Both the position numbers and the translations under genes were made by a program. Of a stretch of 64,000 nucleotides of DNA, positions 6,605-64,000 are shown piece after piece (position 1 is the first letter of the stretch; every line of letters starts with the position of its first letter). Under the pieces are notes generated by a model that saw only the letters and a list, made by a program, of their open reading frames with translations, searched no databases and had not been told where the DNA came from. Origin of the DNA: a virus; the IMG/VR virus record IMGVR_UViG_3300032240_000659, positions 64,135 through 128,134 of that record; one strand, written 5' to 3'.

Positions 6605-6605
6605 T

Positions 6606-6905
6606 ATGTCAAATTATACAAATACAAGTCCGTGGTATCTTACTCAGACTAAACAAGACTATCTAGATGTTTTAACAATTAGGCCTGTCAGTGCAGAGGT
6701 AGATGATTTTTATTATACTATTGAATCACAGTATGCATTTCGACCTGACTTATTGGCATTTGACTTGTACGGAGAAGCTAATCTTTGGTGGGTTTTTATA
6801 CAACGAAATCTTAATGTTCTTCAAGATCCAATATTTGATTTTGTTCCGGGAAAAAAAATCTATATTCCAAAGAAAAGTAGTTTGTTTACGGTATTAGGAT
6901 TATAA
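6606..6905 (+). CDS. Baseplate wedge protein (gp53-like, LysM-type)
   Basis: RPDLLAFDLYGEANLWWVF...N...DPIFDF.PG..IYIP pattern. Start set at 6606 rather than 6591 to avoid overlap. Confidence 0.75.
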   Translation: MSNYTNTSPWYLTQTKQDYLDVLTIRPVSAEVDDFYYTIESQYAFRPDLLAFDLYGEANLWWVFIQRNLNVLQDPIFDFVPGKKIYIPKKSSLFTVLGL

Positions 6906-47125: not shown

Positions 47126-47413
47126 TTATCTGGTCTGTAAATATGGACATGCAATCGTGAAAAAACTAAGTTCTTTTTCGCTTTCAAACCCAATACGGGT
47201 GTTGTATACAATTGTTTTGGTATTGTCTAATGTAATACCTTGTCCTATATAATACCTACTATTTAAATTAAATAGTATCCATTGGTTGATAGATTTGACT
47301 AGCGAGGGTGTATATCTGTCAACAGATGTATATTTAAAATGCGGGCAAGCCACATCCACTCTACGTAAATTAAAATAGTTTAGTGGATTAGGCTTGCCAT
47401 TCTTTAGAGCCAT
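47126..47413 (-). CDS. Hypothetical protein
   Basis: ORF coupled to the vWA gene stop. Confidence 0.65.
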   Translation of the reverse strand: MALKNGKPNPLNYFNLRRVDVACPHFKYTSVDRYTPSLVKSINQWILFNLNSRYYIGQGITLDNTKTIVYNTRIGFESEKELSFFTIACPYLQTR

Positions 47414-48600
47414 TAAGCGTGTTCCTTAACTTGTTCGTAGTATGCGTACTCGCCAAACGGAGGAACAATTTTGTCGTTGCCGTGGATGACAAATACTGTA
47501 TCACAGTAGTTTTCATCACCCCAGCTACCGTATGGATAACCGTCAGTAAACATGATAAACTTTTTAGGTTGAATATCATTTTCCTTCATGTATTCCCAGT
47601 TAGCATCAAAGTCTGTTCCGCCTCCACCCATTGGCTCATAGCTGTCAAACTCGTCAATATTATAACCGTCAAAATTTGCCTCGTTATAAATGCTGGTATC
47701 AAAACACCAAACTTTAATTTTAAAATCTTGATATTCTTGCATAATACCTTTGATTTCACTCATAAAGTCTTTAGCTTGTTCATCACCAATTGAGCCAGAC
47801 ATGTCAATACTTACACAGATATCAATAGTTTCTTTAAACTGAGTACCTGGCAAAATTGCGTTCATGTGCCATCCCTTACGGTTAGGGCGCATAAATGAAT
47901 AGTCATCTTTAATGGTGCTTTGGATTTGCTGACGCAAAATCTCACGCCAATTCATTTTAGGCTCGGTGAATTCTTTAATCATTCGCTGAATGCTTGCAGG
48001 GGTATTTCCTGCACCCGCAGCCTGAGCCGCCGCCATAACTGCTTCACGCATCTCGTCACGGATTTGTTTTAGTTCTTCTTTAGAGTAACTAGGTCGATCA
48101 CCAGTGCCATCTTTGTCACCCCAGTCAATGTGATCGTCAAGAAGCTGGCCCAATGCATCAAGTTCTTTTTCATCTTGTTCGTCAAAGATTTTGTCGTAGA
48201 TTTCTTCCGCACCCATACCGTAGTATTTAGGATCGTGAAAAATAGTAATGCCTGGAATATTATGATCACCAATTTTATCTCTAACAATTTGACCATTGGC
48301 ACAATAGTCTGCGGCAATGTTAAAGATACGTGCATTACGACCTTCTCGACGTGACATATGATCAAATACGTTGTGCAAAATTTCGTGAGCAATAACAAAT
48401 TCAACCTGTTTAATTGTAAGAGGTTCAAAAAACTTACGATTAAAATAAATGGCTCGACCGTCTGTTGCGGCAGTACCCGTCCAATCTGTAGCTTCTTCAA
48501 TCTTCAAACGTGTGGCCATATTGCCAAAGAAAGGATGACGTAGCAAGAGTCCAACTCGTGCTACAATAATTTTATCAATAATTGGATCTGCGTGTGCCAT
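47413..48600 (-). CDS. Metallopeptidase-like plus vWA domain protein (DUF2201-type)
   Basis: TAATDG and HEILH (HExxH) N-terminal motifs; C-terminal IDMSGSI MIDAS, GGGTDF, FTDGY. Confidence 0.85.
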   Translation of the reverse strand: MAHADPIIDKIIVARVGLLLRHPFFGNMATRLKIEEATDWTGTAATDGRAIYFNRKFFEPLTIKQVEFVIAHEILHNVFDHMSRREGRNARIFNIAADYCANGQIVRDKIGDHNIPGITIFHDPKYYGMGAEEIYDKIFDEQDEKELDALGQLLDDHIDWGDKDGTGDRPSYSKEELKQIRDEMREAVMAAAQAAGAGNTPASIQRMIKEFTEPKMNWREILRQQIQSTIKDDYSFMRPNRKGWHMNAILPGTQFKETIDICVSIDMSGSIGDEQAKDFMSEIKGIMQEYQDFKIKVWCFDTSIYNEANFDGYNIDEFDSYEPMGGGGTDFDANWEYMKENDIQPKKFIMFTDGYPYGSWGDENYCDTVFVIHGNDKIVPPFGEYAYYEQVKEHA

Positions 48601-48625
48601 ATAAGTTCCTTTTTAATATGTGTAT

Positions 48626-48654
48626 AGTATAACAGGACCCGCAGGTCCTGTCAA
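48626..48654 (-). promoter_or_regulatory. Sigma70-type promoter containing an 8-bp inverted repeat
   Basis: TTGACA-N17-TATACT; ACAGGACC-cgca-GGTCCTGT at 48632-48651. Confidence 0.7.
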
Positions 48655-48670
48655 ATACTGCAATGCCAAA

Positions 48671-49759
48671 TTACTTTTCAGTAGCCTGTGCAATATACTT
48701 ACCAAACTTAGCGTGGAAGGCATCAAAACAAGCAATCTCGTCAGGATCCAACGGCAACTTATATTGGCTCAATGCAACTTTAGTGCCCATGATAACCAAT
48801 TCTGTTTCAAAATTGTCCATCATAAATTGGAAAAAGTTGTTAACTTGATCGTTCCAATTTTTAGCATTTTTATCGCAAGCATCTTTGAGTTCATAGCACA
48901 GGCTAATAGTCAAAGAATACATAGCTGAAATCTCTTTAGATTTCATTTCCTTAACTTTGCCGCTAAGAATATCTGACGGATTAGGCATCTTGCCTGACAC
49001 TTTTCGGTGTGCCATAAACTTAACAGCAAGACCTTCCCCAACTGCTCCTGACACCAAATCAGACATTGTCTCAGTATCAGTATCGTCGTCGTGCAACAGT
49101 TCGCTAACAAACGCCCAGCTACGTGGAGTAGCAAATGCACGTGAGCTAGACTTTGGATCAAAGTCGTACAAGTCTTTCTTAGAGAAAGACAAGAAACCAA
49201 CTACATCCTTGTGTACTTTGTTTTCAGTAGCCCAGTCAAAATAGTCGTCCCAATCCACTGTCATTTCCAAGTGAATGAAACGATTAGCCAACGGCGCTGG
49301 CATGCGGAAAGTAACACCTTTGTCAGTTTCACGATTGCCTGCGGCAACCATTACTACATTGTCTGGCAGTACATAAGTACCAACACGACGATTCAAAATA
49401 AGTTGATAAGCCGCGGCTTGTACGCTAGGAGCGGCGCTGTTCATTTCATCCATAAACAAGATAATTTGTTTATGTTGTTTGGCAAATTCTTGGCTTGGCA
49501 ATTCACTAGGAGGAGCCCAACGCATAGTGCCATCGTTGGAATCAAAATATGGAATACCCTTAATGTCAGTAGGTTCCCAAAGAGAAAGACGAACGTCGAT
49601 CACGTGAGCATCAAGCTCAGTACCGAGTTGTTTGATAATATCGGATTTACCAATACCTGGAGGGCCCCACAAGAACAATGGGCGCTTATTTTTAAAAGCC
49701 TTACGCAAAGACTTTTTAGCTGCCTTTGGGCCAACTGTACGGCTAAGAATTTCTGCCAT
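48671..49759 (-). CDS. MoxR-like AAA+ ATPase
   Basis: Walker A GPPGIGKS, Walker B LFMDE, AAGN sensor 1, PLANRF arginine finger, TPRSW sensor 2. Confidence 0.9.
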   Translation of the reverse strand: MAEILSRTVGPKAAKKSLRKAFKNKRPLFLWGPPGIGKSDIIKQLGTELDAHVIDVRLSLWEPTDIKGIPYFDSNDGTMRWAPPSELPSQEFAKQHKQIILFMDEMNSAAPSVQAAAYQLILNRRVGTYVLPDNVVMVAAGNRETDKGVTFRMPAPLANRFIHLEMTVDWDDYFDWATENKVHKDVVGFLSFSKKDLYDFDPKSSSRAFATPRSWAFVSELLHDDDTDTETMSDLVSGAVGEGLAVKFMAHRKVSGKMPNPSDILSGKVKEMKSKEISAMYSLTISLCYELKDACDKNAKNWNDQVNNFFQFMMDNFETELVIMGTKVALSQYKLPLDPDEIACFDAFHAKFGKYIAQATEK

Positions 49760-52323: not shown

Positions 52324-52769
52324 TCTACTTCGGCTTTGCCGTTACCTAATTTGTTTACGTTGATAAAACCTGCACTACGATTAGGATCTAATCCTTCATT
52401 AGAAAACATATTTCGGGCTAAATCTCTAAACCAACGATCTACAATTTCTTCGTCTGGATCACCATCAAAACCATAACCTGCTTTCTTTAATTGTAACACA
52501 AATTCGTCGTTCCAATCAAGCTCAAAAAATCCGTTCCTTACATTATCTTTATTTACTTTTGTATCTAAAACAGCTACCCAAGCTTCGCCTTTTTTGGTAG
52601 CAATTTCTTTGGGTGTTAGCTTTGCATCCTCTGCTTCTCGCCGCGCCTGTTCGGCTTTTTTTTGGTGCTCGGCTGTTGTTTCTACAGCTATTGCTAATTT
52701 TGCTTCTGCGTCTGCAATGTTTTTTTCAATCTTGTCTAAGCCAATTAAGCGTTTAAAAATATTTTTCAT
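52320..52769 (-). CDS. Hypothetical protein
   Basis: Coiled-coil N-terminus, GFFELDWN..F motif. Start set at 52769, abutting the queE stop. Confidence 0.7.
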   Translation of the reverse strand: MKNIFKRLIGLDKIEKNIADAEAKLAIAVETTAEHQKKAEQARREAEDAKLTPKEIATKKGEAWVAVLDTKVNKDNVRNGFFELDWNDEFVLQLKKAGYGFDGDPDEEIVDRWFRDLARNMFSNEGLDPNRSAGFINVNKLGNGKAEVE

Positions 52770-53632
52770 TAGGTACCCCACTCGTTTTTAAATAATGGAA
52801 CTTGTAATCTGTCACTATAACGTAATCCATTTTTCATTGCTAGTTCTGCGACACGGCGATTATTAAGAGTGTACACGCTTTCAACACCTCCAACAGGCAT
52901 AAGATAAACAGGACCCTTAAAACCCTCTGCACGATATATATCTGCTGTTTCAATTGCTTCCTCCGCATCTTCTTCGGTGGATACAACAAGTTTTAAGTAT
53001 GTGTAACCAACTTCTTCATATTCGCACACAACATCTGGACGAATAGCTTCATGTCTTGCTTCACCACTACAACTTAATTTAGCACTTACACTAAATGTAA
53101 TTTCTTTGTGATAATCAATTTCTGGTAGCTGCCATTGTAGCAAATAATCTTTAAATTCTGGATTTAATTTTTGAGTACCATTTGTTTCAAATGTAATCTC
53201 TTTTAATCCCTTCATTTTAGGATGTGATAACAAGTCTGGATAAGCACGTTGCCAACCTAACAAAGGTTCACCACCTGTAATAACTAGATGCTCGTCTTGC
53301 CATTCGTTGAAGGGCAATATCTCCATGATTCTGTCGGCAATTGAGTCTGTTGTGAGCATAGGACTAAGGTCCTTAAAACTTGGATGCCAAGAAGCATAAC
53401 TATCGCAACCAGTACTAACAAGGGGAAGTTCATTGTAGGTAGTCCATTTGTTATATTTTTCTTGCTTTTCTGCTAATACATCTGCTTCTCCACTTAATGT
53501 ACCTTTGAGCATGCCAAAGCCTGCACACTTAAAGTTACATCCAAATGTACGTAAGAAAACGGACGGTACACCCATGTAACGTCCTTCGCCTTGTATGCTA
53601 TAAAATAATTCTGCAATTTTAATTTTTGACAT
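52769..53632 (-). CDS. queE: 7-carboxy-7-deazaguanine synthase (radical SAM) with atypical Cys spacing
   Basis: ELFYSIQGEG.Y.G.PSVFLR..GC, VITGGEP, ETNGT, SAKL, YSDRLQ motifs. Start set at 53632. Confidence 0.88.
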   Translation of the reverse strand: MSKIKIAELFYSIQGEGRYMGVPSVFLRTFGCNFKCAGFGMLKGTLSGEADVLAEKQEKYNKWTTYNELPLVSTGCDSYASWHPSFKDLSPMLTTDSIADRIMEILPFNEWQDEHLVITGGEPLLGWQRAYPDLLSHPKMKGLKEITFETNGTQKLNPEFKDYLLQWQLPEIDYHKEITFSVSAKLSCSGEARHEAIRPDVVCEYEEVGYTYLKLVVSTEEDAEEAIETADIYRAEGFKGPVYLMPVGGVESVYTLNNRRVAELAMKNGLRYSDRLQVPLFKNEWGT

Positions 53633-53960
53633 GCTGTTTCCTAAGTTCATCTACATCTTCTATAGCAGATTGTAACACACTTGCATAGTTAAGAGCAACC
53701 TGTTTGTTCATCATAATACAAGTTTCAAAATCAGTATACCCTTTGGTTAATAGTTGCCAAATATGATACCACCTTGATTTTGACCAAAAGTTTGTTCTAG
53801 TTGTAGTATAGATAGTAACAACTATGCCTGTATCTTCTGCTTCAATATCAATAGTATGTGTACAATCGTCTGAACCGCATTCGCATACTGCTTTATACAT
53901 TTTTGATGTACCCCAGTCTTTGACTAGTAATACACCTTGTGCTGGTGTTTGTGATTTCAT
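53619..53960 (-). CDS. Hypothetical protein (CxCxxxxCxH, possible metal-binding)
   Basis: CECGSDDCTH motif. Confidence 0.65.
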   Translation of the reverse strand: MKSQTPAQGVLLVKDWGTSKMYKAVCECGSDDCTHTIDIEAEDTGIVVTIYTTTRTNFWSKSRWYHIWQLLTKGYTDFETCIMMNKQVALNYASVLQSAIEDVDELRKQHVKN

Positions 53961-54175
53961 TTACAGTTTTCCAACCACATATCTAAACGATTAACAGCTT
54001 CTTCAAAATCTACAGCCCATACCTTAGCTTCAAGTTCGCCGTCTTTAATATTAATATCAAACGGAACAACACCGTTCATTCTAAAGTCATGTGGTGTGTC
54101 CACACATACTGTAAACTCTTGCAAGTTTTTAGCACGGTTAATAAACTGATCCATTATATCTTTTGCAGTACTCAT
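53957..54175 (-). CDS. Hypothetical protein
   Basis: Coupled to neighbours. Confidence 0.6.
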   Translation of the reverse strand: MSTAKDIMDQFINRAKNLQEFTVCVDTPHDFRMNGVVPFDINIKDGELEAKVWAVDFEEAVNRLDMWLENCK

Positions 54176-54681
54176 TATTCTTCCTTTGGTTTTGGAAATG
54201 ACTCACTAAACGGCCATGCAGTGCTTGGTTCAGGTCTAGGTTTTAGTTTAACATTTTCTTCAATAACTGTGCCATCTTCATCGCACAGGCTAACTTGGAA
54301 TGGTGCATCAATAATTAAGTAGTCGTCTTCAACTTGCCAGTCATGTTCACCGTCAAACAGCCATCCTGCTCCGCCTTCGTGATATGAACTTTCAAACTCT
54401 TCTTTTTGTTCGTCTGTAAAATCGTCACTAAATTCAAACCAGCAAGCATGTTGGTCATCTAGCTCTGCACCCCACCCGCAATCGTTTTTAGCATGTGCTT
54501 GTATGTCGCCTTCGTAGGGCAGATTCATATCCATATCTTCTTCTACAAAGCCTTGTCCCCATCGATAGTGATCGTCGATGTTAACCCAACTAATAGTACC
54601 ATCTGCATTATCTCGCCACAGTTCAATGTGCCAGCAGATACTTTTTTTGTGTAAGGGTTTAATTAGATATACTTTACTCAT
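54175..54681 (-). CDS. Hypothetical acidic protein
   Basis: 168-aa Asp/Glu/Trp-rich ORF. Confidence 0.65.
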   Translation of the reverse strand: MSKVYLIKPLHKKSICWHIELWRDNADGTISWVNIDDHYRWGQGFVEEDMDMNLPYEGDIQAHAKNDCGWGAELDDQHACWFEFSDDFTDEQKEEFESSYHEGGAGWLFDGEHDWQVEDDYLIIDAPFQVSLCDEDGTVIEENVKLKPRPEPSTAWPFSESFPKPKEE

Positions 54682-54689
54682 TTTCTACC

Positions 54690-55448
54690 TTAGCGTGGTG
54701 CAAACTCTTGTTGCAATTTAATGTTATCAAAAAACTCTTTCTTTGTATTACCGTCAGTGTTAAACGCACCTTTGAGTACAGTAGTTTGAGTTAGTGAACT
54801 ATGTGCCATAATACCGCGATTTTCACAGCAACCGTGTGTAGCTTGAACATAGACTGCTACGTTTTCTGATTCGGTTGCTTTTTGGATCTCCCTAGCAATA
54901 TCGTTACACAACTCTTCCTGGAGAGTGCCGCGACGAGCACACCACTGAGCAATACGAGTGTACTTAGACAAACCAATAAGTTTTTGTGCGGCAATGATGC
55001 CAATGTAAGCGACACCAGCAACGGGCTGATGATGATGACTGCACATAGAGCGCAACTCACTACGTACCACCAGCATACCTTCGTAGCGGTCCTGCGAATC
55101 ATTTGGAAATGCCGTTGCGTCTGGTGCTGGTTCATATCTTCCTGCCATTATTTCGTTGTAATACATCTTGGCCAGTCTACGTGCTGTGCCTTTGCTATTG
55201 GGATCGTTTTCTCGATCAATAAGTAATACATCTAAAACTTGTTCAAATGCCGGCGTTGCTTCGTCAATTAGTTTTTCTAAATCACCTTCATGCAAGTAAT
55301 CGCTAATGTTATCACCAGCCCAAAAACGTTTTCCTTCACGTTTCATCTTAAAGCGAAGATGATCGCTTAATTTTGCTATTTCATAGCCGCCATCTCCAGC
55401 CATAGCATCTAATGCTGTTTCCTGGTTGTATGTTCTTGATTCTGTCAT
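54690..55448 (-). CDS. folE: GTP cyclohydrolase I
   Basis: SMCSHHHQP and HGCCENRG zinc ligands, GLSKY.RI..W..RRG.LQE. Confidence 0.95.
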   Translation of the reverse strand: MTESRTYNQETALDAMAGDGGYEIAKLSDHLRFKMKREGKRFWAGDNISDYLHEGDLEKLIDEATPAFEQVLDVLLIDRENDPNSKGTARRLAKMYYNEIMAGRYEPAPDATAFPNDSQDRYEGMLVVRSELRSMCSHHHQPVAGVAYIGIIAAQKLIGLSKYTRIAQWCARRGTLQEELCNDIAREIQKATESENVAVYVQATHGCCENRGIMAHSSLTQTTVLKGAFNTDGNTKKEFFDNIKLQQEFAPR

Positions 55449-55488
55449 TATTATTCTCCGATGTTAAGGCAGTGGATTGCCATGTAAT

Positions 55489-55516
55489 ATTATACTATTA
55501 TTTAGGTCTGTGTCAA
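55489..55516 (-). promoter_or_regulatory. Sigma70 promoter with an embedded TAAATA late motif, upstream of folE
   Basis: TTGACA-N16-TATAAT; TAAATA in the spacer at 55499-55504. Confidence 0.75.
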
Positions 55517-55708
55517 TATTTTGTTTGCTCGAAGCTTTCGGCATTCTTCTCTAACTTCAAGTGGGATATCCGGATGCCATTCTGCCATTCCGCAGTCGTA
55601 TACTCGTGTTCCTTCTTTAGGAGCAATCCATAATAGTGTTGGTATTGCTACTAATGTTAGAAGTAACATAACAACTATCAAAGCGATTCGCTTAATAGAA
55701 TTTGGCAT
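55502..55708 (-). CDS. Small membrane protein with CxxxxWHPD..C motif
   Basis: N-terminal hydrophobic helix; YDCGMAEWHPDIP...REEC. Confidence 0.6.
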   Translation of the reverse strand: MPNSIKRIALIVVMLLLTLVAIPTLLWIAPKEGTRVYDCGMAEWHPDIPLEVREECRKLRANKILTQT

Positions 55709-55941
55709 AATTTTGCATCCTTTAATGATTTGAATGTAAATGTCATATGTGTTGGATATGGCTTATAATAAAATCGATCACCCGGCAAACCAAATACTTC
55801 TAATACACTTGCACACTTTTCGTTCCACCATTGATTATTTTGACTATTCCAATTTATGGTAATAACATGATTAGAATCTGTTATGTCAACCCACCAATCT
55901 GGTTTAGTATAAATCTCAGCGGGTTTGTGATTTATTTTCAT
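55678..55941 (-). CDS. Hypothetical protein
   Basis: 87-aa ORF in operon context. Confidence 0.55.
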   Translation of the reverse strand: MKINHKPAEIYTKPDWWVDITDSNHVITINWNSQNNQWWNEKCASVLEVFGLPGDRFYYKPYPTHMTFTFKSLKDAKLCQILLSESL

Positions 55942-56092
55942 TTTCTAAAAATTTAATTTCGTCTCGAATGTATTCTTTATATTCAGCAAGAACTTCTAGT
56001 TTCCTGCCACTCTCACCAGTTAGTCGAAGTGTTTCTAAATCTTTTTCGATCATTGCTAATTTATCTTTTAGCTCTTGAATTGTTAAACTCAT
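55916..56092 (-). CDS. Hypothetical coiled-coil protein
   Basis: Start set at MSLTIQ (56092), overlapping the PRTase stop. Confidence 0.55.
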   Translation of the reverse strand: MSLTIQELKDKLAMIEKDLETLRLTGESGRKLEVLAEYKEYIRDEIKFLENENKSQTR

Positions 56093-56607
56093 TTCCAAAA
56101 TTCTTCCCAAGGATAAACTAACCAACAATCTTCTTCGGCTTTATTTACTTCCCAGTAAGTATAATCAACATCTTCCTTACTAGACAAGTTATTTGTGAGT
56201 ACAGCAAATCTTACATTTTGTCCCCACACATGATTCCAACGTTTATCATTTGGTAAACATAGACTTTGCCAGTCTTGTTTAATCCAAGCAATAGTTGAAC
56301 CTTGATCGTTAATATCGTCGACTACTAGAATGTTTTTACACAATGGATCGCCAACGTTTGCGGCATTGTATCCAAACGCATCTTCAGCCATACCGCAATC
56401 ACTAACTTTAATCCCGCCATCTCTAAGACTAACCATAAGCGTAGCCATAGGAATATCTAAGTATTGACTAATTAAATTAGCCGGAACAAGACCACCTCGG
56501 CTAATGCCAACAATATAATCAGGGTACCATTTATCTTGAACCATTTGACGAGAAAGATCTAAACAGGCACCTTCTACTTGTTGCCAAGTATAATATATCT
56601 TTTTCAT
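56089..56607 (-). CDS. Type I phosphoribosyltransferase (purine/Gpt-like)
   Basis: IVGISRGGLVPA and PRPP loop ILVVDDINDQGST; WLVYPWE end. Confidence 0.88.
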   Translation of the reverse strand: MKKIYYTWQQVEGACLDLSRQMVQDKWYPDYIVGISRGGLVPANLISQYLDIPMATLMVSLRDGGIKVSDCGMAEDAFGYNAANVGDPLCKNILVVDDINDQGSTIAWIKQDWQSLCLPNDKRWNHVWGQNVRFAVLTNNLSSKEDVDYTYWEVNKAEEDCWLVYPWEEFWK

Positions 56608-56837
56608 GCTGTTAATGCTGAAGCCAATGTTGCCATTTCTTCCTTAGTTATAAAGAAATTATAAGTAGCAGTATCTTGTACTATGCCGTCTTTTAAACTT
56701 TCTTGAACCATATCAACACTGAACAAGCCTTTAGGGCTTAGTACTTCGTGTTTCTTTAGCAATAGGCGAAAACTGTCTTGCTCTTTAATAACTATTTCTT
56801 TATAGCTATCTTTAACCGATTCGTGTAATTGTGTCAT
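56604..56837 (-). CDS. Hypothetical protein
   Basis: Coupled to neighbours. Confidence 0.6.
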   Translation of the reverse strand: MTQLHESVKDSYKEIVIKEQDSFRLLLKKHEVLSPKGLFSVDMVQESLKDGIVQDTATYNFFITKEEMATLASALTA

Positions 56838-57097
56838 TGTAAGTTCCTTGGTCTATTAATATCTTCTAAAACAACACCAGCAATGCGTTCAAACTCTTCG
56901 TCAGAAACACTTTCATCCATGGCTAGTTCTTCTAAGTCAACGGGTCTGCTCATTAACTGGATTTCTTCTTTTGTCTTGCCTTCAAACATGCCTGTAATTT
57001 CTTTGACTAATTCGTCAAGTTCTTCTTGAGTGCCGTCAAAGTTATCAAAACACCCCGGCGCAAATTCAATTTTTGGGATTTTATTTTCTTCAGTCAT
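56834..57097 (-). CDS. Hypothetical acidic protein
   Basis: Start set at MTEENKIPKIEFAPGCFD (57097). Confidence 0.6.
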   Translation of the reverse strand: MTEENKIPKIEFAPGCFDNFDGTQEELDELVKEITGMFEGKTKEEIQLMSRPVDLEELAMDESVSDEEFERIAGVVLEDINRPRNLQ

Positions 57098-57485
57098 CGC
57101 CTTTAATGCTTTCAAAAGTTCTATACTTACCCAAAGCATTAATGTAGTCATCATATAACTTCGTTAGCTTTGGATGCTTAGCCTCTAGTTTAACATCTCT
57201 TTCGGGAATACACAAGACTTTTTCAATTGTCTTTAGCCGTTCTTCTAAATCTTGTCCGTTCAATACTAAGTTGCCTTTAACTTCTAATGAAGGAGGATTA
57301 GTTTGTTTAATTGTTAGTGCGGCATCGTACGGAGTAGTTGTAGTACCAGTAGTCCAAATAGTATTACCAGTACCGGCACCTGATGTTAAAAACTGTCCAG
57401 ATGTTGTTCCTGTTGTTAATGACGGAATAGCGCCATACCCTGGCGCCAATGTTCCGTTAGATTGTGTTGTTGTGAAGTACGCCAT
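57090..57485 (-). CDS. Hypothetical protein with Thr/Gly-rich N-terminus
   Basis: Low-complexity N-terminus plus helical C-terminus. Confidence 0.6.
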   Translation of the reverse strand: MAYFTTTQSNGTLAPGYGAIPSLTTGTTSGQFLTSGAGTGNTIWTTGTTTTPYDAALTIKQTNPPSLEVKGNLVLNGQDLEERLKTIEKVLCIPERDVKLEAKHPKLTKLYDDYINALGKYRTFESIKGDD

Positions 57486-57960
57486 TTTTTCTATTAGTCA
57501 AATAATTATCGTTGTGGATCCATTTATTTTTAACGAGGAATCCCCATTCACGACGTTGCGGTCCCGGCATAAACAGTGTCCATGCAGTAACATTGGGGTC
57601 AAGCTCAATTCGGTGATAACTTTTAGCACCGCATATACGAAAATGTCCAGGTCCACGCCACGTACATATTTCTCCAATCATTTCATTTTTATTATTGAAC
57701 ATTGGTGTCCATTCATAGTAGCCGCCTTTCAAGATCAATGTAGCATACGGCCACGGATGGTCATGGACATCATCCGGATCACCTTTGTGAAATTTGTGTA
57801 AGAATATGTTAAACGGAAAATTTTTTCTATCTTTTAAAAATAGATAATAGCGTGTTACTAATGGCTCGTTGCAGGTACGATCCATAATAATCCGCTTTCT
57901 ATCGTAATTTTCTAAAAATGAAAAAAATTTATTTTTTATCTTTTGGATTATCATATTCAT
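57457..57960 (-). CDS. Cupin-fold protein (metal-binding HxH)
   Basis: LHKF...DVHDHPW...LILKGGYYE...YHRIEL...WTLFM pattern. Confidence 0.7.
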   Translation of the reverse strand: MNMIIQKIKNKFFSFLENYDRKRIIMDRTCNEPLVTRYYLFLKDRKNFPFNIFLHKFHKGDPDDVHDHPWPYATLILKGGYYEWTPMFNNKNEMIGEICTWRGPGHFRICGAKSYHRIELDPNVTAWTLFMPGPQRREWGFLVKNKWIHNDNYLTNRKNGVLHNNTI

Positions 57961-58309
57961 CCTTTACAAGGTAATAGGTTGTTTTAAACTTTTGAAATGC
58001 AATTTCCAGGCCAGGATATTCTTTACACATTTTTTCAATCCTGGTCCAATCAGGCCAACTGTCAATAAACTCTGTAGGCCCCTTCCAAATATTTTCAAAA
58101 CTTGACCCAGCACTGCTAATATTAACACCGCCACCTGTTAGTGTTATATTTCCTATATTTCCTGTAGCACCTACTGTACTGTAGTAATAATTCGAACTGG
58201 CATTACTCATAGTTATACTACTAGTATACTTAGATGGATCAATTGTAATAGTACTAATTGTATCAGTTAATATTGTTGAGTAGTCCGGTTGCACTGAAGA
58301 ATTGCTCAT
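57929..58309 (-). CDS. Hypothetical protein with Ser/Thr-rich N-terminus
   Basis: Low-complexity N-terminus; MCKEYPGLEIAFQKFKT C-terminal helix. Confidence 0.6.
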   Translation of the reverse strand: MSNSSVQPDYSTILTDTISTITIDPSKYTSSITMSNASSNYYYSTVGATGNIGNITLTGGGVNISSAGSSFENIWKGPTEFIDSWPDWTRIEKMCKEYPGLEIAFQKFKTTYYLVKDEYDNPKDKK

Positions 58310-59360
58310 GTAATACCTCCACTTGTTTTTGTATGTGTGGCAATCGAGTCATATAGTTATCCATATGTTGCATAATTGCAAAACATAAATTAGGACGATG
58401 TATTTGGTATGCTTCAAAATTCTCAGTCCATGTACTAGGATATTTAAATGTATCAAATGCCATTTCGCTATAACTAAGTCTATCTGGGACTAATGGTATA
58501 GCATCTACTACTGCACCTTCATACCAACTAATACCTAGCGTTTCTTGTAAGTTAGCACTAAACACCATTTTAGCTTCGCCTAACAATGTATGATATTCAT
58601 GTTTTGTTAGTTGTTGATCCTGACACACTACAAATTCATATTGCGGTAAGTGTGTAGCTAAGTCTCGAAAAATCTCAACTTGCTTCTCTGGTGCAATACG
58701 GTGCGGAAACAAGATCATATCTCGTTTCTTCATGCCTTTATAAGGTGCAAGAATATCTAACATATATTCCATAGGCCAACCAGTACGCACAATCTTGCCT
58801 GAGTCATAGCGTTCAGCCCAATCTTCTTCCCACCATGGATTTTCTTTTTTGTAGCCATCTTCTAGTAGCTCTTCAAAAAATAACTTAACGTGAAATTCGG
58901 TGGCAAAGTAGTTATGATCAAACGCATGGAAGAAACTCTTCTCAGCATGTCTAACCCATTTCTTTTTACCAACTAGTCGACCTAAAAAGTCTTGAGGATC
59001 ATAACTGCCAGCATGCCACAGGCCATGTGTGGTTACTGGAATGCCCAACAACTCACTCATGTACTTTAGATTAATGATACCTGGGTGCCAAGCATCAGTA
59101 AAAATAAAGTGATCGCCGGAATGAACGGCTCCACTGCAAAATAGTCGACCCATCTGCCCAACCTGGTCTGCCTTATATATATTGGTACCACCAAAATTAA
59201 GGAAAGCACCAGGAGTAGTGGCAGTAGGAATATCCGTAGGGCCAGCGATAATTTGAACATTGTGTCCTGCCTTTCGTAAGAGATCAGGTACATGAGTCTT
59301 CCATTGACCCGTGTACCTAGTTTCTACTGCTTCTAAATCAACGAGAAAAACGTTCGGCAT
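58263..59360 (-). CDS. GT-B glycosyltransferase (GT4-like)
   Basis: FPHRIAPEKQ and ETLGISWYE (E-x7-E) nucleotide-sugar motifs. Start set at MPNVFLVDLE (59360). Confidence 0.85.
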   Translation of the reverse strand: MPNVFLVDLEAVETRYTGQWKTHVPDLLRKAGHNVQIIAGPTDIPTATTPGAFLNFGGTNIYKADQVGQMGRLFCSGAVHSGDHFIFTDAWHPGIINLKYMSELLGIPVTTHGLWHAGSYDPQDFLGRLVGKKKWVRHAEKSFFHAFDHNYFATEFHVKLFFEELLEDGYKKENPWWEEDWAERYDSGKIVRTGWPMEYMLDILAPYKGMKKRDMILFPHRIAPEKQVEIFRDLATHLPQYEFVVCQDQQLTKHEYHTLLGEAKMVFSANLQETLGISWYEGAVVDAIPLVPDRLSYSEMAFDTFKYPSTWTENFEAYQIHRPNLCFAIMQHMDNYMTRLPHIQKQVEVLHEQFFSATGLLNNIN

Positions 59361-59607
59361 TATTTTTATTCTCGTAGCGTGGTTTATAATTATTACCACT
59401 CCGATTAAAGTCACCTCGCGGCTTCCTTGGACGAGTTGAATGCCAGTATTGATTCCATACTTGACTTTCCCTATTGTATAAATTTGCTTCATCAAACGGT
59501 AAGAGTTCAATTCTACAAAAATCGTGGAATTTTTCTAGATCGTCAAAAATCTTAACAATCTCAGGTTTAGCTCCCCAATAGTTAATGTCTCGATAGTTTT
59601 TAGCCAT
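59338..59607 (-). CDS. Hypothetical protein
   Basis: 89 aa; KIFDDLEKFHDFCR..L..FDEA.LY core and Arg/Asn-rich tail. Confidence 0.65.
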   Translation of the reverse strand: MAKNYRDINYWGAKPEIVKIFDDLEKFHDFCRIELLPFDEANLYNRESQVWNQYWHSTRPRKPRGDFNRSGNNYKPRYENKNNAERFSR

Positions 59608-59619
59608 AATAGCTTTTCC

Positions 59620-60009
59620 TTAATACTTAATAAATGAACCATTTTCTCCGTCTTCGGAGACCTCAATCCAAACCTCACGGTTAGGATACTTATTGGAGAT
59701 AGCGTCAAACAAATCGCCTGACATCATCTCGCAACTCTTGTAATCTAATTGGAGTGTACCTTCTGCATACAATTTTTCCAACCAACGTTTAAACTGAATA
59801 AATTCGATATCGCGATCGTCGTGTGTAACACTAATCCAAACTTTAAAGTGGAAGATGTGACGATGCGGATAGCCTAGGAAACTTACATCATACTCGTCAC
59901 CTGTAGCAAGCGCCGGATCTGTTAGTGCTGCCGGGTATTTGTGCATACCTTCTTTACAAAAGGTAACCCATATCATTTTGTTAGGACGAACGTCTTGTCT
60001 AATTATCAT
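59620..60009 (-). CDS. dpdL: QueD-like T-fold enzyme, LxxxHRHxF type (DpdL-like, predicted CDG decarboxylase)
   Basis: EGMH, LGYPHRHIF, RDIEF, SCE, EVSEDGENG; lacks the CxxxHGH motif of canonical QueD. The DpdL assignment rests on a recalled motif. Confidence 0.6.
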   Translation of the reverse strand: MIIRQDVRPNKMIWVTFCKEGMHKYPAALTDPALATGDEYDVSFLGYPHRHIFHFKVWISVTHDDRDIEFIQFKRWLEKLYAEGTLQLDYKSCEMMSGDLFDAISNKYPNREVWIEVSEDGENGSFIKY

Positions 60010-60545
60010 AATGCTTTATCTTCTTTGTATTTGCTCCAAGGCGTAAATTTAGAGCGGTCTTGTAATGTGTGTAGGCTATGAGACCATACACCTGGATTTG
60101 TTGCTTTAAAATCTTTATCGTCGATTTTAATCATTGTATTATAATTCCATAATTTAATATAGGGAATTGGTACTCTTATTTGCGGAATAAAATTTTCATA
60201 TGAGCATAATCCGCCTTCGTGAAATTCTTCAACTGCGCTCATAGGAATATCTAAACTACACCAAAAATCTTTTTGCAGAAAATACTCAATCATATCTTCC
60301 CAAGATTTCCAGTCTAGCGCAGATACTGGATCAAAACTATGATTAGCACCAAAGAAAATGTGCTTAATATGCTTTGATGTATCTGTATAAGAATTGTCTT
60401 CCGCAAGTAAGTGTTCAATTATTTGTTTATCTTGTATGCCAGTAACAAATAATGTCCGCATACCAAATGCAGGAGTGTGCTCAACTTCAATGCCTGTAAA
60501 AAATTGAACATTGTCTTTTGTACCATCTGCATAATCACGATTCAT
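60006..60545 (-). CDS. Hypothetical protein in the deazaguanine cluster
   Basis: 179 aa; GIEVEHTPAFG..TLFV, FFGANHSF, KIDD.DF..TNPGVW motifs. Confidence 0.75.
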   Translation of the reverse strand: MNRDYADGTKDNVQFFTGIEVEHTPAFGMRTLFVTGIQDKQIIEHLLAEDNSYTDTSKHIKHIFFGANHSFDPVSALDWKSWEDMIEYFLQKDFWCSLDIPMSAVEEFHEGGLCSYENFIPQIRVPIPYIKLWNYNTMIKIDDKDFKATNPGVWSHSLHTLQDRSKFTPWSKYKEDKAL

Positions 60546-60786
60546 TTTTTTCCGCCTTTGATTGTTCGTATACTTTAAACATTCGACTTACATCTTCCAT
60601 GCGTTTTTGAAAAACATCAGGTGAACCTTCTGCCGCACGAGTCATATCGTACTCGCTAGGATAATGCCGCAAACAATATCTAGCACTATCTTTAATTGCT
60701 TTTGGTACCCGAGGAGTAGTTAAGATCTCTAATAGAAATCTTTGAGTCTGTACTACTGCTCGATACCTTTCGTCTGGTAATGTCAT
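60535..60786 (-). CDS. Small conserved phage hypothetical protein
   Basis: MTLPDERYRA...TPRVPK...LRHYP pattern, recalled from other phage genomes. Confidence 0.65.
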   Translation of the reverse strand: MTLPDERYRAVVQTQRFLLEILTTPRVPKAIKDSARYCLRHYPSEYDMTRAAEGSPDVFQKRMEDVSRMFKVYEQSKAEKNES

Positions 60787-62546
60787 TCTTTTGCCTGTAA
60801 TTCTAGCTGGTCTAATTTTGATATCTCTTCTTCGGTAAATTCTTCACCATGCTCTAATTGTACAGGTTCGTCCTCTACATAGTCAAACAAATTGGTAAAG
60901 TGGGTAGATGCATTAACCGTTTTCTTACCAGTAGCACCTCGGGTACCAATGATAGCTTGCCAAAATTTATCAAATGATTCAATAATCATTTCAGCATCTG
61001 CTCTGTTCGGTGTGGCAAAAATAGCATCTACAATATCTCTAAAGTAAATTCTATCAAATTTTTCTTGCACTAACATAGCAGGCACACTACCTTTATCGTA
61101 TTGACGATTGGCTTCTTGTACTGCATTAATGTGACTCCATACGTTATGACCCATTTGGATTGCATAACTAAACGAATCCCAACTTGTTCGATTACTAACT
61201 TTGCCTAGCTTGTTAAAGTCTGGCTGAACAATCCAATCGGCTGGATTCATTGGGTCTGGATCTTTAATACCTGGCATAGGAGTACCTGCACCATATATAC
61301 AAATATCTTTCATTTGAACAGTATCCATTAACGGACTAGATTCAAAATTTTCAAAGATTTTGTCTTGTATTACTCCGTCTTTAAAGAGTCGTGTGTCGGC
61401 TGCGTATTTTTTGTCGTCAGCAGACGGCACCATTCGGTAGACCCATTTTGTTCGATTAACTGTTTCTGTTTGGATGTAGATTTGTCCGTTTGCTGTTGCC
61501 AAAAACGGTGAGGCGCAGTCAAAAGATATGGTAAAGTTTTCATTGTGGTATTTCCTTACTGCTCGTTGTATATCAGTTAATAAAGTTGCCCACTCTAGTT
61601 TAGAGGTGCCCAGGAAGTGCATCCAGTCTTGATGACCCTGTTCAAGGAGCCCGTCAAACTTTAATGCTACTAATCTTTTTAATACCAGATGGATGTCGCA
61701 CATGTTCTGCCCACCCATCGCCCATCCGTTAAATGGTTTATCATACTTTTTAGGATCGCAGAAGTCTTTCATTGATTGATACCAACGTTCTGCTTGATCA
61801 TGAGTTTCGCCTTGAAGAACATTTAAGAACTTACAAGAACCTGTGCGATGTTTAATCCAATATTCGTTATTGTATTTGGTTGCTTCAACAGCTTCGTCAT
61901 AACTTGTGATACCAGTTGCTTTACGTCCAGCAGGACTACGTTCAACCCATGCTGGAATATCAAGTACCATACCATAGTCCATAAGTGCATCCATCCAGGT
62001 TAATACCTGTGTACGTTTCTTATGTGCCGCATCTAGTCTTGCTTGGTATAGCTTAACATGATCAACTTTAGTATGTTTAGGATTGCCATTCTTATCTAGT
62101 TTAGGACTTCCTGATGCATCTAATTGCGGAACTAATTCAATGCCCTTGGCAACGGCTTCTGCCATACGTTGTGCAACTACAGGACCGTTTGGATCATTCC
62201 ATTCGCCTTCCCACACACCTTTACCAATCTGAAAGCCTCCGGAGTCGCCCAACACCCATGACGTTGAGCGATCTCGTTTACGAAACATGTCCTCGCCTTC
62301 GTCTGGTTTATTAAGATCTAAATTAGCATGACCCGCTGAGTACAAACACCATTTGTAATAAAACTCGCCTATCTCGGGTTCTAGATAGTTAAGACTATCC
62401 ATACCATGTCCCCAATGTTGCGGAATACGTGCAGGATCTACATAGTTTCCATAGTGTTGTTTTCCTATGAATGTTGCATAGAATCCACTAGTTGCCGGCA
62501 AAAAGACAGCGTAGTCTGACTGTGTTGCGGTTAAGTTTCTATTCAT
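60783..62546 (-). CDS. dpdA: Guanine transglycosylase, TGT/DpdA family (probable DNA 7-deazaguanine insertase)
   Basis: GDSGGFQI, VLDIP, LNVLQG, GWAMGG, MHFLG, SFDCASP TGT-barrel motifs; no CxCxxC zinc site of tRNA TGTs; clustered with folE and queE. Confidence 0.85.
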   Translation of the reverse strand: MNRNLTATQSDYAVFLPATSGFYATFIGKQHYGNYVDPARIPQHWGHGMDSLNYLEPEIGEFYYKWCLYSAGHANLDLNKPDEGEDMFRKRDRSTSWVLGDSGGFQIGKGVWEGEWNDPNGPVVAQRMAEAVAKGIELVPQLDASGSPKLDKNGNPKHTKVDHVKLYQARLDAAHKKRTQVLTWMDALMDYGMVLDIPAWVERSPAGRKATGITSYDEAVEATKYNNEYWIKHRTGSCKFLNVLQGETHDQAERWYQSMKDFCDPKKYDKPFNGWAMGGQNMCDIHLVLKRLVALKFDGLLEQGHQDWMHFLGTSKLEWATLLTDIQRAVRKYHNENFTISFDCASPFLATANGQIYIQTETVNRTKWVYRMVPSADDKKYAADTRLFKDGVIQDKIFENFESSPLMDTVQMKDICIYGAGTPMPGIKDPDPMNPADWIVQPDFNKLGKVSNRTSWDSFSYAIQMGHNVWSHINAVQEANRQYDKGSVPAMLVQEKFDRIYFRDIVDAIFATPNRADAEMIIESFDKFWQAIIGTRGATGKKTVNASTHFTNLFDYVEDEPVQLEHGEEFTEEEISKLDQLELQAKE

Positions 62547-62680
62547 TTAGCAAATTTATCCAAGAATTTTTGATGTTTACTTTCGGGCAATACTGGTTCC
62601 GGAGCAAATTGATCGTCATATGCTGTCGAGCTTGTGCTACACCAAGTAGTGTATGGTCCTTTTCTCTTGCGGCATTCATA

Positions 62681-63412
62681 TTATTTGCTCTGTGCTGGTA
62701 AAATATAATCGTATTGAGCAATACCACTATCAACAGTGATTTGCAATGCACCTGCATCGGCAATACGTACAGTTTTATCGCCGGCCAAGTTAAGAATACT
62801 CATAACTTGAACAACTGGCCAAGACCATGTTGATTTTAGTCGACCAGTCACGTTTGATTGGAATGTAAAGCTACCTGCATGGGTGCTTGCATCACCAAAA
62901 CTAAAAACTAATTCGCTACCATCTGTCTTAACTTGGAAAACACTTTCTTCGCTATGTGCTTGTGCTTGAAATTTTAATTTCTGAATACTAGCAACTAATG
63001 GTTCAAATTCAATATCCCACTTAGCGCCTTTAAACTTCACTGACTTTAACTTTTCGTTAATAATGTCTTGGTTCATAAAGCGATAGTCATTTTCAAAATC
63101 TCCAGTGCTATTTTGAAAATGCAAACCAGTTGGGATATCTTCACCATTACGATTTTGCTTAACTACACGAATGCCTGCACCTTCTTTGTACTCCGGGCAT
63201 TTTAAATGCAGATCCAATTTGTTTAAGTTAGGCATACCAAATGTGCCTTCAAACTCATCTATTGGGGTATGTGTCTTAGCGTTCAAAATAACTGAACGAT
63301 CTTCAGCCATTGATTCGATAACAGTTTCCGCTGTTGATGCAGAAACTTTAACTAACGGCAAAAAGCCTAGGCTGTGTGTATGTGCTACTAAATCTTGTAA
63401 AAAGTCTTTCAT
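62681..63412 (-). CDS. gp45: DNA polymerase sliding clamp (gp45-like)
   Basis: About 240 aa with a two-domain beta pattern (FGMPNLNKL, NDYRFM, YDYILPA); has its own promoter. Confidence 0.6.
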   Translation of the reverse strand: MKDFLQDLVAHTHSLGFLPLVKVSASTAETVIESMAEDRSVILNAKTHTPIDEFEGTFGMPNLNKLDLHLKCPEYKEGAGIRVVKQNRNGEDIPTGLHFQNSTGDFENDYRFMNQDIINEKLKSVKFKGAKWDIEFEPLVASIQKLKFQAQAHSEESVFQVKTDGSELVFSFGDASTHAGSFTFQSNVTGRLKSTWSWPVVQVMSILNLAGDKTVRIADAGALQITVDSGIAQYDYILPAQSK

Positions 63413-63432
63413 GAGAATCTCCTGTAAATGTG

Positions 63433-63461
63433 ATTATATTTAGATCTGTGTTTAAAGTCAA
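63433..63461 (-). promoter_or_regulatory. Sigma70 promoter with overlapping TAAATA late motif, upstream of the clamp gene
   Basis: TTGACT-N17-TATAAT; TAAATA at 63437-63442; ACAGGAG RBS. Confidence 0.8.
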
Positions 63462-64000
63462 GTGTTTTTTCTTACTTTATTATTATAATTGATGGCAGAT
63501 TCCACCAATGTTGCTGGTGATCCTACCGCATCTGCCCATTGTACAAATGCAGTAGTATCTTTGGGGAAACAAGCACCTCCCCAACCGTATTCACCATCCG
63601 GGCCCGGAACCATAGTATGGCCTGCACCAATGCGCTGATCCGAAGCGATTATTTGCCTAACAGTATCAAAATCTGTACCAGTCTTTGTACATAGGTCAAA
63701 TATCTGGTTAAAAAAGGATGTTTTTAATGCTAGGAAACTGTTTGTTGCATATTTTACCAAACATGCTTCTTCAATAGTGCAATGGAACACTATAGAACAA
63801 GTTGGTAGTGTAGTTTGAAATACTTCGTGCCAGAAGTAGTCTGGATCCTCCCCGCCAATAACAACATATTTTTGAGTTAAAAAATCTTGATTAGCACTTC
63901 TAGCTCTTAGGAATTCGGGACTAAACACAATGCTATGATCATTATATTGATTAATAATAGATCTAGCAACTTCTGGAGTCACTGTGCTCTTAATTAATAC
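63458..64000 (-). CDS. ugd: UDP-glucose/GDP-mannose 6-dehydrogenase family protein, partial (5' end outside window)
   Basis: LIKSTV, SPEFLR, KY..NSFLA.K..FFN, GWGGACFPKD (catalytic Cys); the frame stays open to the window edge. Confidence 0.85.
   Translation of the reverse strand, partial: VLIKSTVTPEVARSIINQYNDHSIVFSPEFLRARSANQDFLTQKYVVIGGEDPDYFWHEVFQTTLPTCSIVFHCTIEEACLVKYATNSFLALKTSFFNQIFDLCTKTGTDFDTVRQIIASDQRIGAGHTMVPGPDGEYGWGGACFPKDTTAFVQWADAVGSPATLVESAINYNNKVRKNT

Follow-up and report, generated by a model that had tools for sequence, protein, structure and literature searches.

What does a glycosyltransferase do in the middle of a gene cluster for the 7-deazaguanine modification of DNA? 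The question is raised by one end of a 64,000-nucleotide stretch of viral DNA (hereafter the window; bases 64135-128134 of the 128,134-bp contig IMGVR_UViG_3300032240_000659 of IMG/VR), in which a preliminary description, made from the letters alone, had named ten genes in a single minus-strand block: a UDP-sugar dehydrogenase, a clamp, a DpdA resembling tRNA-guanine transglycosylase (TGT), a 179-aa protein without assignment, a T-fold protein with an LxxxHRHxF motif, a GT-B glycosyltransferase, a cupin, a phosphoribosyltransferase (PRTase), FolE and QueE. All ten were found, on the minus strand, within 52769-64000, and their order is kept in 80 related viral loci, so the arrangement is not due to chance. 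The contig is rated 35% complete, which at 128 kb implies a jumbo phage of ~350 kb. The window has a G+C content of 30-40%, and a megablast search with the 11-kb block returned no DNA-level match to cultured phages. The present data suggest a QueC-less, DpdL-type 7-deazaguanine module in which the glycosyltransferase may decorate the base, a proposal to which we give an even chance of being correct.

The deazaguanine pathway and its end point

The clearest indication of where the pathway ends is provided by the 129-aa T-fold protein. Its LGYPHRHIF segment carries the LxxxHRHxF signature, kept in 30 homologues, which in place of the CxxxHGH of QueD defines DpdL, a QueD paralogue without the catalytic cysteine that has been proposed to decarboxylate 7-carboxy-7-deazaguanine (CDG) to 7-deazaguanine (Cui, Hutinet et al., NAR 2023, PMC10516641). 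Across the 30 homologues H23, H49, H51, S92-C93-E94 and E119-D120 are invariant, and the core residues (H, HRH, SCE and EDGEN) are also kept in the DpdL of Cellulophaga phage phiST, which is 31% identical to the 129-aa protein and comes from a phage in which all G is replaced by 2'-deoxy-7-deazaguanosine (dDG; measured as 100%). The signature and the residues held in common with phiST assign this protein to the DpdL type. At four of the related loci (L041, L044, L066 and L075) a divergent DpdL subtype (38-39% identity) is found without the LATGDxxDV loop, the glycosyltransferase still being adjacent.

Models of QueC, QueF and PTPS/QueD had no match in the whole 128-kb contig, and those of QueC and QueF had none in the relative G001, whose 372-kb genome is complete and bears terminal repeats, or in the Pseudomonas jumbo phage PA5oct. 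The lack of QueC and QueF, reported beforehand for the window, thus extends to complete genomes and implies a QueC-less pathway of the DpdL type. Canonical QueD, also reported as missing, is indeed missing from the window and from the contig, but G001, PA5oct and a further relative known from fragments (G002) encode it away from the module. Judged from this gene content, the lineage is predicted to make CDG and to be unable to make preQ0, in agreement with the earlier view that the pathway halts before preQ0. Of the enzymes upstream of CDG, the QueE-like protein scored E 1e-12 against the NCBIfam QueE models, below their cut-offs, and its match to phrog_2076 is full-length. The start of this protein is usual (FYSIQGEG and GCNFKC), and its cluster cysteines are unusually spaced, C38-x3-C42 being followed by an insert of ~39 aa before C82-D-S. 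Taken together, the base pathway probably leads to a DpdL-type deazaguanine in DNA.

Insertion of the base would fall to the 587-aa protein. Sequence searches gave no match to it in Pfam (including the TGT model PF01702), NCBIfam, PHROG or the PDB, and a PDB profile search with a 49-sequence alignment of its family was empty. By structure, the top 50 Foldseek matches of its AlphaFold2 model (pLDDT 90) were all tRNA-guanine transglycosylases (E 4e-7); VIA-align gave Z 18.6-17.5 over ~300 aa, with 297 aa aligned to the archaeosine TGT 1j2b at an rmsd of 4.9. Invariant in the 49 sequences are D101 (in DSGGFQ), D196, H310, G313 and D343 (in SFDCASP), and in hhalign the DSGG and D343 motifs align with the DSGG and SYDS of DpdA3 from Acidovorax phage ACP17. 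By analogy with characterized TGT enzymes, the D101 motif is presumably catalytic and D343 the nucleophile. The hhalign comparison of the family with ACP17 DpdA3 reached a probability of 96% (E 1.6e-9, 173 columns), that with phiST DpdA3 was weak (probability 82%), and tblastn with the 587-aa protein finds neither of the two (CGPG_00065 in the case of phiST). Large insertions are present in the 587-aa protein, its counterparts being 540 aa long in PA5oct, 424 aa in ACP17 and 259 aa in phiST, and no obvious CxCxxC zinc motif is seen. The family is extensive, with more than 7000 matches at 90% clustering and at least 923 representatives at 50% clustering. On the strength of the predicted fold, the protein appears to be a long, divergent DpdA that is related to DpdA3, though not a proven member of that group.

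The glycosyltransferase and its linkage to the module

The glycosyltransferase was taken to start at MPNVF (365 aa) and not at the TTG of a 415-aa open reading frame (ORF), since its homologues are 364-366 aa long. It had no match in Pfam (Glycos_transf_1 included), NCBIfam or PHROG at E 0.01-0.1, and a PDB profile search was empty. Its AlphaFold2 model (pLDDT 87) contains a complete GT-B fold of two Rossmann domains, for which VIA gave Z 24.2 with sucrose-phosphate synthase (6kih, 317 aa, rmsd 3.5), 23.3 with BshA (3mbo) and 22.5 with MshA; glycogen synthases and tetrahydrobiopterin glucosyltransferases are also among the structural matches. An E-x7-E motif (E273-TLGISWY-E281) is invariant in 35 sequences. 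The GT-B assignment of the preliminary description is upheld by this full GT4-type fold and motif, and the protein is best described as a predicted retaining GT4-type GT-B glycosyltransferase and a candidate decorating enzyme. Isoelectric points do not separate DNA-binding from other proteins in this case.

Among predicted viral structures the best match of the glycosyltransferase is the enzyme of the ACP17 module (E 1.5e-29, TM 0.84-0.89), with generic glycosyltransferases following far behind. All close relatives within the phage collection belong to these modules, the next sequences being 26% identical over 70% of the length. These most distant relatives, in Xanthomonas phage PhiXhv-15 (L090, 3708-6942), stand beside a GlmS-like aminotransferase and a BshB-like deacetylase, without DpdL, and belong to a different phage sugar pathway.

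The association of the glycosyltransferase with deazaguanine genes is remarkably constant. The 80 related loci were collected via the transglycosylase (59-81% identity), and gene presence was counted in the 45 of them whose downstream flank reaches 5 kb or more. All 45 encode the 179-aa protein, DpdL and the glycosyltransferase, 42 FolE, 37 the cupin, 36 the PRTase and 23 a protein resembling UDP-glucose dehydrogenase (UGDH); DpdL is separated from the glycosyltransferase by a median of 270 bp. In cultured phages the glycosyltransferase is found beside DpdL or within ~3 kb of it in five lineages (the PA5oct group, ACP17, Phosso, BUDD/X1 and BCSR5), and in six lineages, otherwise unlike in gene order and in genome size (156-469 kb), its gene is an immediate neighbor of DpdA, DpdL and QueE or is placed between them. 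The co-occurrence of the glycosyltransferase with dpdA and the HRH protein, which the preliminary description had put forward as a check on its reading, was therefore found both in the 45 loci and in the five cultured lineages. No glycosyltransferase-bearing module without DpdL was seen among the cultured phages examined. The core of the glycosyltransferase-bearing lineages consists of FolE, QueD, QueE, DpdL, the glycosyltransferase and DpdA, no other enzyme being common to all. Given this constant linkage of glycosyltransferase, DpdL and DpdA, a sugar-decorated deazaguanine is a good prediction. In Xanthomonas phage BUDD (L091, 5377-5871) a 164-aa protein with the annotation 'PAPS reductase family' is encoded between FolE and the glycosyltransferase; as QueC belongs to the same ATP-pyrophosphatase superfamily, the BUDD lineage may do different chemistry.

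Comparison with individual phages places the module between systems that share most of its parts. The phiST system (FolE, QueD, QueE, DpdL and DpdA3) agrees with the present one in FolE, QueE, the LxxxHRHxF motif of DpdL, a distantly similar transglycosylase of the TGT fold, the lack of QueC and QueF, and a position beside DNA polymerase genes. However, it has no glycosyltransferase, 179-aa protein or PRTase, and whereas its base has been measured, that of the module described here is predicted from the genes. In PA5oct (Wroclawvirus) the order is the same, namely a clamp-like protein, a DpdA-like protein (31%), glycosyltransferase (EST35_0317, 41%), DpdL (56%), PRTase and QueE, and in ACP17 it runs QueD, FolE, a homologue of the 179-aa protein, DpdA3, glycosyltransferase (ASD50404, 34%), DpdL and QueE. 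Unlike the present block, neither the PA5oct locus examined nor the module position in ACP17 has a cupin homologue. The DNA of PA5oct resists several restriction enzymes with G-containing targets and is cut by a nuclease that senses modified G, the base being recorded as an undefined 'modified G' (PMC12191111).

The 179-aa protein had no match in Pfam (alone or as 26 members), PHROG, NCBIfam, PDB profile or ESM Atlas searches, nor did hhalign match it to other proteins of the module. A profile search returned at least 7986 metagenomic homologues, all labeled 'hypothetical', and the only cultured phages with a homologue are those of the PA5oct group (in PA5oct itself ~27 kb from the module) and ACP17 (between FolE and DpdA3). 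From this distribution the protein is judged to be module-specific. The ACP17 homologue (L086, ~6236-6706) extends upstream of the annotated 132-aa coding sequence, the tblastn match beginning right after FolE, and the true start probably lies upstream of the one deposited. A Phosso 'glycosylase' at the equivalent position was considered as a further homologue and rejected (17% identity).

A proposed route to a decorated base and its alternatives

From the gene identities, the folds, the conserved synteny and the absence of QueC and QueF, we infer the chemical steps of the following model, along with its DNA target, acceptor atom and sugar. FolE, QueD (from another part of the genome) and QueE would convert GTP to CDG, from which DpdL, by the activity predicted for it in the literature, would take off the carboxyl group to give 7-deazaguanine. 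After replication, the 587-aa TGT-fold enzyme would swap guanine in the phage DNA for 7-deazaguanine, and the glycosyltransferase would transfer the sugar of a host nucleotide sugar to the deazaguanine, most likely after the base has entered the DNA. The purine so formed would carry a sugar and protect the DNA from restriction. The 179-aa protein may be a further, module-specific partner, the PRTase may recycle the released guanine by way of GMP to GTP for FolE, and the cupin and the short UGDH-like dehydrogenase would be facultative. As no extra enzyme is shared by the glycosyltransferase-bearing lineages, the acceptor must already exist in the DpdL pathway, either as 7-deazaguanine (in DNA or free) or as CDG, and because front-face retaining catalysis depends on an X-H nucleophile, the candidate acceptor groups are the N2-H and N1-H of the base and the carboxyl of CDG. 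Our expectation that a sugar-decorated deazaguanine is formed is evenly poised, and it can be tested in cultured phages such as PA5oct.

Two known systems offer partial parallels. In T4, hydroxymethylcytosine in DNA is decorated by GT-B alpha- and beta-glucosyltransferases with a host UDP-sugar, a step that is optional among its relatives. As in the present proposal, a non-canonical DNA base is further decorated by a GT-B enzyme; however, T4 places the sugar on the hydroxymethyl O-H of a pyrimidine, and 7-deazaguanine offers no such group. The GT4-family enzyme QTMAN/GTDC1, which glycosylates queuosine in eukaryotic tRNA, is comparable in that a GT4-type enzyme decorates a 7-deazaguanine derivative already in nucleic acid, but its acceptor is the cyclopentenediol hydroxyl in tRNA, whereas here the target would be DNA and there is no QueC, QueF or queuosine side chain. 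Pfam detected no sequence similarity between the phage glycosyltransferase and QTMAN/GTDC1. Full-text literature searches, including those for DpdA3, DpdL and ACP17, found no description of a glycosylated or glucosylated deazaguanine in phage DNA, and none of the eight 7-deazaguanine derivatives identified in phage DNA bears a sugar (PMC10516641).

Several points weigh against decoration of the base. The structural neighbors of the glycosyltransferase are all retaining enzymes whose acceptors are small molecules or sugars, and the T4 DNA glucosyltransferases (GT63/GT72) are not among the PDB or BFVD matches listed, which is still compatible with some kinship. 7-Deazaguanine has no hydroxyl group, and we know of no precedent for glycosylation of an N-H or of the CDG carboxyl by a retaining GT-B enzyme in DNA. 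Seven cultured DpdL lineages are without the glycosyltransferase (the phiST group, RHph_I1_18, Bakedbeans, D479, Ahp1, BUCT-ZZ01 and MA9V-3), among them RHph_I1_18 although its DpdL is 59% identical, so a sugar step would have to be optional. In addition, a queC gene could lie in the missing 65% of this genome, and the activity of DpdL has never been reconstituted, heterologous expression having failed (PMC10516641).

Some of these points would be accommodated if the module made plain dDG as in phiST and the glycosyltransferase, acting on a host or phage glycan, a protein or a metabolite, were kept in place by the tight packing of an early/replication block. Kinship to small-molecule and sugar enzymes such as BshA, MshA and sucrose-phosphate synthase would then be expected, the missing hydroxyl group of dDG would pose no problem, and DpdL lineages without the glycosyltransferase, one of them with measured dDG, would need no special account. 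However, packing alone sits poorly with the adjacency to DpdA, DpdL and QueE across six lineages of unlike architecture and such different genome size, with the presence of the glycosyltransferase at every one of the 45 loci, and with a family that has no close relative outside the modules, and for these reasons we consider this explanation possible but doubtful. A different target within DNA, hydroxymethyl-pyrimidine, is weakened as a substrate for glucosylation by the absence of any candidate for a ThyA-family hydroxymethylase in G001 or ACP17. The sugar could also be added before insertion, with free 7-deazaguanine, CDG or a pterin being glycosylated and the enlarged TGT-like enzyme inserting the decorated base. 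The small-molecule acceptors of the nearest structures, the tetrahydrobiopterin glucosyltransferases included, would suit such an order of events, as would the insertions of the 587-aa DpdA relative to the 259-aa enzyme of phiST, but the DpdA proteins of PA5oct and ACP17 are shorter and accompany the same glycosyltransferase, and we know of no precedent; we therefore regard it as unlikely. It is true that ACP17 DpdL and DpdA, expressed without the glycosyltransferase, gave no dDG in Escherichia coli (PMC10516641). However, the corresponding phiST pair also failed there, although phiST has no glycosyltransferase (PMC10516641), so the failure with ACP17 is not diagnostic.

The remaining explanations concern the chemistry of DpdL and the site of action of the TGT-like protein. 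The acceptor may be the CDG carboxyl, yielding an acyl-glycoside, or the product of a different DpdL chemistry, in which case DpdL would not be a simple decarboxylase where a glycosyltransferase accompanies it. CDG alone among the pathway compounds has an O-H nucleophile, the invariant Cys93 of the SCE motif has a role that is unexplained, and the decarboxylase activity is unproven (PMC10516641). The active-site residues of DpdL are nevertheless identical in phiST, where the product is dDG, and a glycosyltransferase module free of DpdL was not met with in the cultured phages, which leaves this chemistry distinctly improbable in our view. We consider it very improbable that the TGT-like protein acts off DNA, whether in tRNA modification or in the conjugation of deazaguanine to protein in the manner of Cap10 of type IV CBASS. 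Its sequence is too divergent for the Pfam TGT model and lacks an obvious zinc motif, and TGT-family enzymes are reported to have been repurposed for protein deazaguanylation. However, its gene has polymerase/clamp genes on one side and a flap nuclease on the other, the protein is akin to ACP17 DpdA3, and PA5oct, with an orthologous set of genes, shows G-specific resistance to restriction (PMC12191111).

If the decorated base is accepted as the working model, thousands of environmental jumbo phages, together with PA5oct, ACP17, Phosso, BUDD/X1 and BCSR5, may replace guanine with a glycosylated 7-deazaguanine by means of a dedicated GT4-type enzyme, helped in some lineages by the 179-aa protein, and we would weigh this broader statement equally for and against. 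With such a base, a purine carrying a sugar would be described in DNA for the first time, and a GT-B enzyme would have to perform an N-, C- or acyl-glycosylation, which would be unusual. A glycosylated deazapurine would amount to a new class of base, a new glycosyltransferase chemistry and a new anti-restriction strategy. Its potential abundance is illustrated by metagenome searches with the transglycosylase, the glycosyltransferase and the 179-aa protein, which gave at least 8000 candidates each. The gene set is present in PA5oct, a candidate for phage therapy whose 'modified G' is undefined, and a sugar step may bear on the failed reconstitution of DpdL/DpdA3 pathways. Defence nucleases and sequencing chemistries may also respond differently to such DNA.

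Facultative genes and the layout of the block

The genes that are more loosely tied to the module lend less support to a pathway rich in sugar enzymes than had been supposed. In 33 intact relatives (for example L002:8397-9224) the UGDH-like protein measures 250-276 aa, a short form that ends after the central domain; its NAD motif (GYGFVG, GxGxxG) and catalytic GGxCFPKD are kept, and its PF03721 match is partial. The UDP-binding C-terminal domain PF03720 was found neither in the contig nor in G001, PA5oct, ACP17 or Phosso, the short form itself not having been searched for in the last three. Because the UDP-binding domain is missing, the substrate is probably not an ordinary UDP-sugar, and on its domain content an ordinary UDP-glucose dehydrogenase is unlikely. 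The earlier name, UDP-sugar dehydrogenase, accordingly fits the NAD and central domains and the catalytic cysteine and does not fit the C-terminal end, and the idea that a hexuronate is added loses ground with a protein so truncated and with a gene that is a facultative neighbor, present in about half of the 45 loci. The deazaguanine block itself contains the UGDH-like gene at three loci (L024, L025 and L027), where the cupin and FolE flank it.

Of the ~100 phage records in which the cupin family is represented, most belong to lineages that were not found with the module (e.g., mycobacteriophages). By its distribution the cupin is probably not module-specific, and its candidacy as a module-specific tailoring oxygenase was rejected for the same reason. 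The PRTase has its best NCBIfam match, below cut-off, to xanthine PRTase; a weak match exists in PA5oct and none in ACP17, Phosso or BUDD, the protein being otherwise confined to this clade. It looks like a purine-type enzyme (xanthine/guanine PRTase-like) and not a sugar enzyme. The claim of extra sugar-handling enzymes is weakened accordingly, with the UGDH-like protein truncated and facultative, the cupin generic and the PRTase of the purine type.

The clamp-like protein had no PDB match, and its best Pfam match (E 0.0097) was below cut-off. In PA5oct and in each of the 80 related loci its gene is the one immediately upstream of the TGT-like gene, and the Phosso gene at this position is annotated as a sliding clamp; the clamp label, which rests on size, polymerase-side position and the annotation of another phage, is unverified. 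A family-B DNA polymerase precedes the UGDH-like gene in a close relative, and a 153-aa protein and a 5'-3' exonuclease/flap nuclease come after QueE, so the module is embedded in a replication block (Table 1). The range given for it in the preliminary description encloses it well.

Table 1. Features of the block in window coordinates, listed in the direction of transcription.
Feature	Position	Strand	Size and evidence
UGDH-family fragment, cut by contig end	63458-64000	-	partial; Pfam PF00984, E 1.9e-23
Clamp-like protein	62681-63412	-	243 aa; phrog_12062, a PHROG without assigned function
TGT-like protein	60783-62546	-	587 aa; predicted TGT fold
Small conserved ORF	60535-60786	-	83 aa; tblastn matches in 38 related loci; no family match
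Orphan protein	60006-60545	-	179 aa; no family match
DpdL-type T-fold protein	59620-60009	-	129 aa; LGYPHRHIF
Basic small ORF, DpdL/glycosyltransferase interval	59338-59607	-	89 aa; kept in 40 of 45 loci; no PHROG match
GT-B glycosyltransferase	58263-59360	-	365 aa; predicted fold and E-x7-E
Two Ser/Thr/Gly-rich small proteins flanking the cupin	57929-58309; 57090-57485	-	126 and 131 aa; no family match
Cupin	57457-57960	-	167 aa; small metal cupin; phrog_4786 ('cysteine dioxygenase' PHROG), E 3.6e-36
Two further small ORFs, 131-aa protein/PRTase interval		-	no significant family match
PRTase	56089-56607	-	172 aa; Pfam PF00156, E 5.5e-14
Small ORFs	55502-56128	-	68-87 aa; no significant family match; one weak PHROG match, E 8e-4
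FolE (GTP cyclohydrolase I)	54690-55448	-	252 aa; Pfam PF01227, 136.5 bits, E 8.9e-40
Three small ORFs, FolE/QueE interval		-	no significant family match; one weak PHROG match, E 0.0045
QueE-like radical SAM enzyme	52769-53650	-	293 aa; phrog_2076, E 9.4e-54

The 126- and 131-aa proteins on either side of the cupin have Ser/Thr/Gly-rich N-terminal halves, and their C-terminal halves are alike by eye only; in its C-terminal part the 131-aa protein has a match to PA5oct EST35_0319 (43% over 35 aa). A perfect sigma-70 consensus (TTGACA, a spacer of 16 nt and TATAAT) is located at 55516-55489 on the minus strand, just upstream of FolE, and a second sigma-70-like site, with 11 of 12 positions, at 63461-63433 on the same strand, upstream of the clamp-like gene, promoter-like sites as a whole being no more numerous than expected from shuffled sequence. 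Downstream of the replication block, at 47413-49759, a MoxR-type AAA ATPase (362 aa) adjoins a DUF2201 metallopeptidase-like/VWA protein (395 aa).

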